In this document: positions 3,729-6,027 of the stretch, one piece after another
Position numbering within the stretch: position 1 is the first letter of the stretch
How the letters are laid out: each line of letters starts with the position of its first letter
From: Promethearchaeia archaeon
GTDB taxonomy: Archaea > Asgardarchaeota > Lokiarchaeia > Sigyniarchaeales > SOKP01
Assembly: GCA_046497275.1 (NCBI GenBank)
Contig: JAWOFX010000046.1
Location: 1 to 7,897 of the forward strand
DNA length: 7,897 bases
Direction: 5' to 3'
Notes under the pieces: generated by a model
Told to the model about the DNA's origin: nothing
The model's database searches: none
The model's input: the letters and a program-made list of their open reading frames with translations, nothing else
Position numbers and translations under genes: made by a program

Positions 3729-4142
3729 ATGATTCAAAAATTATTAATATGCGACAGCCAAGGATATCCATTTTATACCAAAGATTTTGATTCTGAAATC
3801 CCTTCTATTGATCAAGCATTATTGAGTGGATTAATATCCACTATTGGTACACTTGGTAGACAACTCTTTAAAAAAGAAATTGCAAACATTACTTTTGGTA
3901 CAGGGATAACTCAATCTCATATATTTATTGTTACGAAAGAATTATTAACTGAGGGTAAATCTATTTATTTCGTGTTTTTTATGAAGGGTGAATGTGATCA
4001 AAAATTAGTTAAAGATATTTCAACCACAATTTTCATTGAAAATAAAAACATTTTGAAGAGTTCAAATAAATTTGGCGGACAAATCAAATATCGAGTAGAT
4101 TCTGTACTCCAAAATAGATATTCTAATGTTGGTGCTAAATAA
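3729..4142 (+). CDS. Small longin/roadblock-like (profilin-like fold) protein, Asgard eukaryotic-signature type
   Basis: N-terminus MIQKLLICDSQGYPFYTKDF (beta1-beta2 hairpin with a G-x-P turn), helix IDQALLSGLISTIGTLGRQLF, strands HIFIV and IYFVFFM, and a C-terminal helix. This is the typical longin/sigma-adaptin-like layout at 137 aa. Confidence 0.65.
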   Translation: MIQKLLICDSQGYPFYTKDFDSEIPSIDQALLSGLISTIGTLGRQLFKKEIANITFGTGITQSHIFIVTKELLTEGKSIYFVFFMKGECDQKLVKDISTTIFIENKNILKSSNKFGGQIKYRVDSVLQNRYSNVGAK

Positions 4143-4262: not shown

Positions 4263-5234
4263 ATGGAAAAAAAGAAGATTTTATTAACAGGAGCATCTGG
4301 TACGGTTGGATTTGCCATTTTAAAAAAATTAATGACCGAATTAGATAAATATAAAATCAGAGTATTTGCTAGAGGTTCTAAAAAAAACAGAAAACTCTTC
4401 AAACCATTTCTCAATGAGATAGAGCTTGTTTGGGGTAATATTTTAGATTTTGAAAAATGTAAAGAAGCATTAGTAAATCAAGATTTCATAATACACGCTG
4501 CAGCATTAATACCACCTCAAGCCTATAAAGATGAGGATTATACTTATGAAGTAAATGTTAACGGAACAAGAAATATTATAAGTGCAGTAAAAGAATTAAA
4601 CACAAATCCAAAGATCATTTACACTTCATCTATTGTGGTATATGGAGATAGAGTAGATAGTCCAATGATTAGTAAAAAGGATGAACTGAAACCTAATGAT
4701 ATTTATGGTAAAACTAAAGTACAAGCGGAAAAAATAATAAAAGATTCTGGATTAAAATATATCATTTTTAGATTATCTTATGTTGCAACAGTTAATACTT
4801 TAAGATTTGATCCCGTCCTATTTAGAATGCCTTTAGAATCCTCTATTGAAATAATACACCCAAAAGATATTCCTTTGGCAATAGTAAAGTCCATTAAAGA
4901 AGAGAGTTTATGGAATAATGTATATAATCTTGGAGGGGGGGAAGACTGTAGAATTCTTTTTCGAGATTATTTAAATGATATTTTAGAGATTTTGGGAATA
5001 GGGAGAAATTACTTGCCAGAGAAATATTTTGCAGAGGGAGGTTTTAATTGCGGATATATTTCAAATAATGAATATCTTCAAAACTTATTAGATTGTCAAA
5101 AACATTCTTTAGAAGATTTTTATCAAGAAGTAAGAGAATGGATTGGAATTAAGCGATATTTCGCGAGAGTGTTTAGATGGTTTATTAAGAAATATTTATT
5201 GAGTCTAAGAGGCTCAGAATCTAAAAGAGGATAG
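4263..5234 (+). CDS. Extended short-chain dehydrogenase/reductase (NAD-dependent epimerase/dehydratase superfamily; 3-beta-hydroxysteroid dehydrogenase-like)
   Basis: TGASGTVG (GxxGxxG), HAAALIPP, VNVNGT (Asn), YTSS (Ser), YGKTK (YxxxK), FRLS and YNLGGG. Basic residues after beta2 (ARGSKKNRK) suggest NADP(H). The SDR call is firm; the steroid substrate is inference. Confidence 0.85.
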   Translation: MEKKKILLTGASGTVGFAILKKLMTELDKYKIRVFARGSKKNRKLFKPFLNEIELVWGNILDFEKCKEALVNQDFIIHAAALIPPQAYKDEDYTYEVNVNGTRNIISAVKELNTNPKIIYTSSIVVYGDRVDSPMISKKDELKPNDIYGKTKVQAEKIIKDSGLKYIIFRLSYVATVNTLRFDPVLFRMPLESSIEIIHPKDIPLAIVKSIKEESLWNNVYNLGGGEDCRILFRDYLNDILEILGIGRNYLPEKYFAEGGFNCGYISNNEYLQNLLDCQKHSLEDFYQEVREWIGIKRYFARVFRWFIKKYLLSLRGSESKRG

Positions 5235-5259
5235 GAAAAATTGAAAAAAGGTAAAAAAT
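5235..5259 (-). terminator. Oligo-T archaeal-type terminator downstream of the 5-alpha-reductase-like gene
   Basis: The minus strand reads AATTTTTTACCTTTTTTCAATTTTTC, three T-runs directly after the stop codon, filling the 25-bp convergent gap. Confidence 0.5.
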
Positions 5260-6027
5260 TTAGAAAACATATGGAATTAATGCTTTTCTCCCATCAGGAT
5301 AATTGGGGAATTTTTCTTGATACCATATGTGATTTGCATGAGCTCTAGGAGCTAAGTTTGCGAAGGTCCAACAAAAAAATATTAATCCTGGTAAGGACCA
5401 AGTCATTATAGCCCACCCGCCCCACTCTATTATCTCACCTAAATAATTAGGGGAACTTACCCATTTAAATAATCCTCCCCGAGGAATCTTATGAGCATTA
5501 TCTCCACGTTCTCTTAAATTACGAATAATATAATCGGAATGCAAATTGATTCCATACCCAAATAAAAATACAATAACCCCTGAAATAAAAGCTATATTAA
5601 ATATCCAATTGATTGAATAATTTTCTGAAAAGTAATATATCCAGCGAGATTGCAGATAAGAATTTATTTTATTGAAAGTCAAACCAAACGTCATAATTAC
5701 TATTGGCATCTTGTTTTTTCCCCTTATTAAGAAAGGAAATATTAACGCCCTTTGCATATAATGAACCATCCATAGAATTAAAAAGATAATCGGTACTAAC
5801 ATTAAAATTTTATTTCCAATAATAAAATAATAAAAATAGATAATTACAGTAGGGAATTCCATGAGAAACCAACCTAATTTATTATCTATCTCTGGACCCC
5901 AATTGTCTCTTCTATGGCGACCATAAGGTGCGGATACAAAAAATAAAATAATAAATAATATTATACTTATTAATCCAAATCCCCATATCAAGAGATTATA
6001 GAGTAAATATTCATTCAATATTCTCAA
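5260..6027 (-). CDS. 3-oxo-5-alpha-steroid 4-dehydrogenase (steroid 5-alpha-reductase, SRD5A1/2-DET2 type), integral membrane protein
   Basis: Motifs APYGRH, GWFLMEFP, HYMQRALIFPFL, GINLHSDYIIRNLR, IPRGGLFKWVSSPNYLGEIIEW, NLAPRAHANHIWY and YPDGRKALIPYVF, with 6-7 hydrophobic segments. TTG start at 6027; an in-frame TAG lies just upstream at 6043..6045. Confidence 0.9.
   Translation of the reverse strand: MRILNEYLLYNLLIWGFGLISIILFIILFFVSAPYGRHRRDNWGPEIDNKLGWFLMEFPTVIIYFYYFIIGNKILMLVPIIFLILWMVHYMQRALIFPFLIRGKNKMPIVIMTFGLTFNKINSYLQSRWIYYFSENYSINWIFNIAFISGVIVFLFGYGINLHSDYIIRNLRERGDNAHKIPRGGLFKWVSSPNYLGEIIEWGGWAIMTWSLPGLIFFCWTFANLAPRAHANHIWYQEKFPNYPDGRKALIPYVF

Follow-up and report, generated by a model that had tools for sequence, protein, structure and literature searches.

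Recurrent pairing of an extended short-chain dehydrogenase/reductase gene with an SRD5A1/2-type reductase gene in Asgard archaea: a candidate two-enzyme module for the reduction of enone lipids

An extended short-chain dehydrogenase/reductase (SDR; P0001) and an SRD5A1/2-type membrane NADPH enone reductase of the 3-oxo-5-alpha-steroid 4-dehydrogenase family (P0002) are encoded tail-to-tail in the stretch of Lokiarchaeia-type Asgard archaeal DNA, of sediment origin, analysed here (the window), which is an entire contig of 7,897 bp (G000:C153) from a genome of 3.85 Mb and 98.9% completeness (G000). Both open reading frames (ORFs) are intact, that of the SDR, a member of an Asgard-wide subfamily, occupying positions 4263..5234 on the plus strand (323 amino acids (aa)) and that of the reductase positions 5260..6027 on the minus strand (255 aa). 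The pair is best explained as a functional two-enzyme module that would reduce a lipid in which a C=C bond is conjugated to a carbonyl. The leading candidate for its substrate is an exogenous 3-oxo-delta-4 steroid-like enone taken up from the sediment, a reading to which we assign a probability of roughly 45%.

P0002 matched the Pfam family Steroid_dh (PF02544) at 163.5 bits, against a curated cut-off of 22.6, and its residues 8-254 aligned to residues 10-257 of PbSRD5A (7c83; 240 bits, E 2.5e-70), a bacterial enzyme that reduces progesterone with NADPH in vitro (PMC7815742). It also matched human SRD5A2 (7bw1) over the full length (160 bits, E 8.5e-46) and the enoyl-CoA reductase TECR at only 61 bits, and it has the seven-transmembrane (7-TM), ~255-aa architecture of the SRD5A1/2 type. 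This full-length similarity to PbSRD5A and SRD5A2 marks P0002 as a genuine SRD5A1/2-type enzyme and a relative of the human steroid 5-alpha-reductase, bearing out the steroid 5-alpha-reductase call made in a first-pass annotation of the window.

The catalytic signature of the family is Q56-E57-Y91 in human SRD5A2 numbering, with NADPH contacted by N160, D164, R171, N193, E197, R227, H231 and Y235 (PMC7815742). In an alignment of P0002 with 120 Asgard homologues, the catalytic E57 and Y90 of P0002 were invariant in all 121 sequences, and N161, D165, R172, E198, R228, H233 and Y236 of P0002 were invariant or nearly so, among them the equivalents of human N160, D164, R171, E197, R227 and Y235. 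P0002 keeps seven of the eight NADPH-contact residues. At the H231 position it has Asn, against Asn or His across homologues, and at the N193 position Asn, against Ser in most homologues. The signature Gln is replaced by Met in 121/121 Asgard homologues, and M-E was likewise found in 70 of 75 prokaryote homologues, bacteria included. The full catalytic motifs originally ascribed to both genes are therefore present in the SDR (see below) and, in the reductase, as E57, Y90 and the NADPH-contact residues just listed, but not as the Gln of Q-E-Y. M-E-Y characterizes the Asgard enzymes and most bacterial ones, including the sampled Bacteroidales, with Q-E-Y seen in PbSRD5A and the human enzymes. 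Since the human SRD5A2 mutants Q56A/L are inactive, the local catalytic geometry of M-E-Y enzymes must differ.

Bacteroidales genomes bear on the meaning of this Met residue. An SRD5A homologue was detected in 35 of 201 of them, 38-51% identical over the aligned part and mostly 40-47%, with M-E present in all 17 Bacteroidales loci sampled, and eight of these loci had the order SRD5A, Oxidored_FMN, adh_short. A Bacteroidota cluster of 5-alpha-reductase (5AR), NADH:flavin oxidoreductase (5BR) and 3-beta-hydroxysteroid dehydrogenase (3-beta-HSDH) genes has been published (PMC10382948, PMC12345280); disruption of its 5AR gene in Parabacteroides merdae abolishes allo-bile-acid formation (PMC10382948), and isoallolithocholic acid (isoalloLCA) is made via this 5AR-5BR-3-beta-HSDH cluster according to the accounts of Sato et al. 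2021 given in PMC12345280 and PMC10382948. The precedent of a Bacteroidota 5AR acting with a 3-beta-HSDH, invoked when the window was first annotated, is thus real (PMC12345280, PMC10382948). The eight Bacteroidales clusters match the published 5AR locus and are likely to be orthologous to it. Because M-E homologues sit in these 5AR-type clusters, the Met variant appears compatible with steroid activity, and Met-for-Gln would be a subfamily trait rather than a loss of function and no argument against a steroid substrate.

In the SDR, the TGxxGxxG motif (T9, G10, G13 and G16), N98, S122/S123 and Y148-x3-K152 were invariant across the 59 homologues aligned, leaving the N-S-Y-K tetrad intact, and close homologues came almost entirely from Asgard archaea. 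Its Pfam scores were nearly tied between Epimerase (PF01370, 82.2 bits) and 3Beta_HSD (PF01073, 81.3 bits), both matches spanning only the N-terminal 160-170 residues, that is, the Rossmann half (positions 2-160 of 280 in the 3Beta_HSD profile). NCBIfam matches comprised sugar enzymes (GalE, LegB, RmlD) and lipid enzymes (HpnA, OleD-type, SdmB), all far below their cut-offs, and the best PDB sequence matches were nucleoside diphosphate (NDP)-sugar enzymes, with NSDHL (6jkg) matching at E 8e-6 only. The structural model (pLDDT 93) returned RmlB/GalE-type nucleotide-sugar enzymes as top folds (template modelling score 0.70-0.76, 15-23% identity), a match that appears generic for extended SDRs and would not separate 3-beta-HSDs from sugar enzymes; an Atlas search likewise gave generic extended-SDR matches only. 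With tied profiles, N-terminal coverage only and nucleotide-sugar enzymes as the best folds, the "3-beta-HSD-like" label first attached to this protein is not supported.

The segment following strand beta-2 (residues 30-36) of the SDR reads R-G-S-K-K-N-R-K and contains no Asp or Glu; R37, K41, N42 and K44 make up a conserved basic stretch, the last three being at least 90% conserved. The NAD+ signature of dehydrogenating 3-beta-HSDs, an acidic residue ending beta-2, is absent from the protein. Sequence rules for cofactor preference indicate that the SDR is probably NADP(H)-dependent, and because the basic, Asp-free segment suggests NADP(H), the protein would act as a ketoreductase and not as a delta-5-3-beta-ol dehydrogenase/isomerase that depends on NAD+. 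The C-terminal helix (~290-315) is rich in aromatics and has the highest amphipathic moment of the protein (0.70), with a net charge of +4 to +6 over residues 290-310. Together, the basic stretch and this helix suggest a membrane-peripheral reductase rather than a soluble sugar enzyme. No glycosyltransferase or sugar-activation gene was found in any gene context examined. Complex prediction for the SDR and SRD5A gave a score of 0.01, which weighs neither for nor against binding.

Homologues of the reductase carried the names Promethearchaeota, Loki-, Hod-, Hermod- and Heimdallarchaeota, in agreement with the Asgard-like host initially proposed. SRD5A was encoded by 70 of 301 Asgard genomes (26 of the 90 high-quality ones), with a distribution by Asgard family of 30/68 in f1, 5/7 in f2, 21/28 in f7, 9/11 in f29, 0/76 in f9 and 0/19 in f14, and with approximately half of the near-complete genomes of the window's own family carrying the gene. 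When all neighbouring ORFs were clustered across 38 Asgard SRD5A loci, an SDR of the same broad family was adjacent or one gene off in 21. At least six arrangements were represented, the remaining flanking genes differing among them. The pair is convergent in G000 and in 13 genomes belonging to genus g5, with DUF1295 inserted between the two genes in six of the g5 genomes. G168 and G008 have a 516-aa SDR-like protein in tandem with SRD5A on one strand, and G294 has this 516-aa SDR type in convergent orientation. The genes are divergent in G210, G089 and G237, and in G162 an HTH_10 regulator separates them and a second SDR lies alongside. The pair was also kept on metagenome contigs at 90%, 69% and 63% reductase identity, with wholly different flanking genes on both sides in the 63% contig (L085).

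The SRD5A-adjacent copies fell into at least three to four lineages of the SDR tree, so the association has originated or been preserved more than once. All 18 SRD5A-positive genomes of genus g5 had the clade-A SDR, whilst 9 of 10 SRD5A-negative genomes lacked it. G000 encodes 14 Epimerase-family genes in 3.85 Mb, so immediate adjacency would be expected by chance at less than 1% per locus. Because the adjacency nevertheless recurs in many rearranged contexts, it lies far beyond chance by this estimate and points to a real two-enzyme unit; chance adjacency, which the first-pass annotation had retained as an alternative, is an unlikely explanation of recurrence in so many arrangements.

Linkage was not confined to archaea. 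Species-representative genomes were scanned, and the same reductase subfamily was found at 43-51% identity in Spirochaetota, Chloroflexota, Actinomycetota, Myxococcota, Aminicenantes, Poribacteria, Bacteroidota and other phyla. In 20 of the 44 bacterial SRD5A loci examined, an extended SDR of the Epimerase/3Beta_HSD type flanked the reductase, so that the pair is linked in other genomes of both domains, contrary to the lack of linkage elsewhere that the first-pass annotation had named as grounds for rejecting its proposal. The bacterial SDR gene usually precedes the reductase gene in the same orientation, its stop codon overlapping the next start codon (translational coupling), and its product aligns with P0001 over the Rossmann half only, at 23-29% identity, which is why we regard the bacterial partners as belonging to different SDR subfamilies. 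No further neighbour recurred across phyla in the bacterial loci examined. As both the reductase subfamily and an extended-SDR partner are widespread in bacteria, the module is not special to Asgard archaea. In the reductase tree, the window fell within a well-supported Promethearchaeota clade (22 rows), and other Asgard sequences were intermixed with Spirochaetota in a poorly resolved region.

In the proposed mechanism, the SRD5A membrane enzyme would deliver a hydride from NADPH to an alpha,beta-unsaturated ketone at its beta-carbon, with Glu57 and Tyr90 polarising and protonating the substrate, after which the extended SDR, acting at the membrane periphery and probably with NADPH, would turn the saturated ketone into an alcohol. 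Less likely, the SDR would instead supply the ketone by oxidizing an alcohol. From 3-oxo-delta-4 steroids of the sediment, the expected products would be 5-alpha-3-hydroxy compounds of the stanol type. We infer this order of steps and, above all, the substrate; a steroid-like enone leads because the chemistry of the family calls for a C=C in conjugation with a carbonyl and the characterised enzymes at this level of similarity (≥40% identity) all act on 3-oxo-delta-4 steroids. G000 yielded no match to squalene-hopene or oxidosqualene cyclase and none to ERG4/24 above the cut-off, so the cell would have to obtain any polycyclic substrate from its surroundings.

Several observations weigh against a dedicated steroid-reducing module. 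The characterised relatives were assayed only on steroids, so the argument that all of them act on steroids is biased, and the SDR, on present profile and fold matches, cannot be placed with 3-beta-HSDs in preference to nucleotide-sugar enzymes. The convergent orientation seen here means that the two genes cannot be co-transcribed. In a genus-mate genome (G183) the SDR and SRD5A lie on separate contigs, and SRD5A occurs without an adjacent SDR in Heimdall-type (f7) genomes, in f24 and f29 and in most g2 genomes. The SDR family, found in 203 of 301 genomes as against 70 of 301 for SRD5A, is also much the commoner of the two and is therefore not a dedicated partner. No transporter, sterol-binding protein or steroid-specific gene was consistently near the pair in the contexts examined. 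Many bacterial carriers, Dehalococcoidia and Spirochaetota among them, have to our knowledge no known steroid metabolism.

One competing explanation, which we consider unlikely, is that the pair acts on another enone lipid that is neither steroid nor polyprenoid, such as a fatty-acid derivative, a quinone side chain, a xenobiotic or a plant or algal enone, in detoxification or membrane tailoring. The chemistry of the family is general, in that SRD5A, SRD5A3 and TECR each reduce a C=C in conjugation with C=O (PMC11250103), and this reading would also suit the DUF1295 paralogues inserted in the pair in six genomes, the esterase, beta-lactamase-fold and MFS genes found beside it on L085 alone, and the wide occurrence of the subfamily in anaerobes without known steroid biology. 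No conserved neighbour suggests a candidate substrate, however, and the activity of every characterised enzyme at ≥40% identity on 3-oxo-delta-4 steroids speaks for the steroid-like enone instead.

The main alternative, though a rather improbable one, is an endogenous isoprenoid substrate. Here the SDR would oxidize an allylic prenol to the enal and/or reduce the saturated aldehyde and SRD5A would saturate the alpha-isoprene, making the pair a prokaryotic counterpart of the three-step polyprenol-polyprenal-dolichal-dolichol route of eukaryotes (DHRSX and SRD5A3). In that route, too, an SDR is combined with an enal reductase of the SRD5A family (PMC11250103), the archaeal enzyme that alpha-saturates dolichol is not yet known (PMC5088576), and eukaryotic SRD5A is reportedly archaeal in origin (PMC12872463); a genome without sterol-making cyclases and an SDR that looks membrane-peripheral would also be in keeping with such a role. 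Nevertheless, the patchy distribution of SRD5A (70/301 genomes, 0/76 in f9 and about half of the near-complete genomes in the window's own family) misfits an essential carrier-lipid step, and the subfamily also occurs commonly in bacteria, whose undecaprenol is unsaturated. P0002 moreover has the 7-TM, ~255-aa SRD5A1/2 architecture, its partner is an extended SDR and not a classical one of the DHRSX type, and no glycosylation genes lie nearby in the contexts examined.

We give little credence to the view that the adjacency is meaningless and the SDR a nucleotide-sugar epimerase/dehydratase-type or other unrelated oxidoreductase. The convergent layout, which precludes co-transcription, would fit such a view, as would the NDP-sugar enzymes among the best matches by fold and by PDB sequence and the lack of linkage in G183 and many other Asgard genomes. 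Against it, the adjacency recurs in at least six Asgard arrangements and 20/44 bacterial loci with different SDR lineages and unrelated flanks, compared with an expectation of <1% per locus, with co-occurrence of clade-A SDR and SRD5A in genus g5, no glycosyltransferases nearby and a basic amphipathic C-terminal helix on the SDR.

Should the steroid-like enone prove to be the substrate, anaerobic stenone-to-stanol conversion in sediments would be carried out directly by Lokiarchaeia-type archaea, which would also be the first archaea tied to steroid transformation; the electron-sink role suggested in the first-pass annotation is likewise hypothetical. Action on endogenous isoprenoids would instead shed light on the archaeal alpha-saturation step and on the origin of the eukaryotic SRD5A family. 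A wider claim, which we regard as quite improbable, is that the Asgard pair is a forerunner of the eukaryotic SDR/SRD5A logic, taking endogenous polyprenols from alcohol through enal and saturated aldehyde back to alcohol, and ancestral to both the steroid 5-alpha-reductases and SRD5A3, or, in a variant, that stenone to 5-alpha-stanol conversion by Lokiarchaeia feeds the sedimentary stanol record. Whether a steroid or an isoprenoid is the substrate, the conserved combination of M-E-Y SRD5A and extended SDR across both domains constitutes a compact two-gene target that is directly expressible and assayable.

P0002 resembles PbSRD5A in its length of ~255 aa, its full-length alignment, its catalytic Glu/Tyr pair and its NADPH-contact residues, but differs in the invariant Met for Gln, the Asn/His at the H231 equivalent and its archaeal host. 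The Bacteroidota cluster shares with it a 5AR homologue (40-47% identical, M-E-Y) beside a ketoreductase, and hence a logic of enone reduction followed by 3-keto reduction; its partner, however, is a classical adh_short protein whereas the Asgard partner is an extended SDR of the Epimerase/3Beta_HSD type, the Asgard genes are convergent and do not form one operon, and their host is an anoxic sediment archaeon rather than a gut bacterium. An old yellow enzyme (OYE)-type 5BR (Oxidored_FMN), present in the Bacteroidota cluster, was not found in the Pfam scan of the window. Like the Asgard pair, the bacterial SDR-SRD5A cassette of Chloroflexota, Actinomycetota, Poribacteria, Bacillota and others combines an M-E-Y reductase (44-51% identical) with an adjacent extended SDR, but there the SDR gene usually comes first, in the same orientation as the reductase gene and translationally coupled to it, and its product belongs to another subfamily. 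The eukaryotic dolichol "detour" of DHRSX and SRD5A3 (PMC11250103) similarly uses an SDR and an SRD5A-family NADPH reductase for alternating steps on one lipid; in contrast to the Asgard proteins, SRD5A3 is longer and of a different subfamily and DHRSX is a classical SDR, and the eukaryotic pathway is universal where the Asgard pair is patchy. Asgard SRD5A homologues had already been annotated and used in published phylogenomics, in which the eukaryotic SRD5A family was reported to be of archaeal origin (PMC12872463), and our literature searches combining Asgard and 5-alpha-reductase found no paper describing the pairing. What this analysis adds is an extended-SDR partner specific to Asgard archaea, M-E-Y as a trait of the subfamily, and linkage across a broad range of rearrangements.

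At the level of the DNA, the SDR stop codon occupies positions 5232-5234 and that of SRD5A positions 5260-5262, leaving a 25-bp spacer (5235..5259) that was inspected directly and agrees with the convergent layout and 25-bp distance between stops noted at the outset. The M56-E57 codons of the SRD5A gene lie at 5857-5862 on the minus strand. Because its relatives begin with MNE(Y/W), the true start of the gene is probably the TTG at 6018, giving a protein of 252 aa, rather than the codon at 6027. The plus strand of the spacer is A-rich, so that on the minus strand three oligo-T tracts immediately follow SRD5A, where they may serve as an archaeal-type terminator; the spacer sequence contained no oligo-T tract behind the plus-strand SDR. 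A scan with bacterial promoter and terminator patterns, which do not apply to archaea, gave counts at the level of shuffled sequence.

The SDR is preceded, 120 bp upstream and on the same strand, by a gene for a Roadblock/longin-like protein of 137 aa (3729..4142, plus strand). This protein had no Pfam match; its nearest Atlas cluster was Roadblock/LAMTOR2-like (score 0.95), with longin/Sybindin-type clusters ranked lower. Copies 72-98% identical lie directly upstream of the SDR in L083, L084, L087 and L071 (G183), and the gene precedes the SDR in every genome of the genus, including G183, in which SRD5A is on another contig; its membership of the SDR/SRD5A module is uncertain. The tocopherol-cyclase-like gene at 1291-2280 on the plus strand (PF14249, 72.8 bits) and the radical-SAM, TrmO, MsrA, HEAT and PAS genes were rejected as members, being conserved only on the contigs L083, L084 and L087 of very close relatives and absent around SRD5A elsewhere, and across the 38 loci the other genes of the window did not recur beyond the closest relatives. 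Lineage-specific synteny also explains the Cdc6, integrase, Pyr_redox_2, DUF362, CheR, Ras-like GTPase and HAD neighbours in Asgard loci and the YchF, amino-acid permease and nitroreductase neighbours in bacterial ones, none of which was retained as part of the module.

Further variants of the locus were observed among the relatives. The DUF1295 membrane protein lying between SRD5A and the SDR in six g5 genomes (L047:8789-9697, G113, G121, G171, G297 and G219) scored 176.7 bits and belongs to the same superfamily as SRD5A and ICMT; G000 has two DUF1295 paralogues elsewhere (C100 and C109). An HTH_10 protein of the bacterio-opsin-activator type adjoins the second SDR paralogue of G000 (L079:6544-7221, on G000:C96). 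In G162 and G237 (L058:7234-7980, L060:8743-9414) it either separates SRD5A from the SDR or lies next to them, and it could possibly be a dedicated regulator. An SDR relative of 499-516 aa adjoins SRD5A at L056:8814-10364, L057:8814-10364, L075:5907-6719 and L148:4717-6216. Its hosts are some of the Lokiarchaeia, family f4 and a single Acidobacteriota genome, and BLAST matched it to P0001 at E 1e-38 to 1e-53; Pfam did not detect the Rossmann part in the scanned 516-aa Asgard copy (L056) and gave only a weak match to it in the copy from Acidobacteriota (L148). SRD5A and the 499-516-aa SDR may have been transferred together, as one unit. On the Lokiarchaeia contig L085 (157-7314), genes for an aldehyde:ferredoxin oxidoreductase, a classical SDR, an MFS transporter, an esterase and a beta-lactamase-fold hydrolase precede the pair, a context seen once only that could reflect uptake and de-esterification. 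Finally, a contig labelled "uncultured Thermoplasmatales archaeon" (L105, CAZVNH010000122.1) carries an SRD5A nested within the Promethearchaeota clade, has the same CheR and HAD genes beside it as genus g2, and is probably mis-binned or mislabelled.

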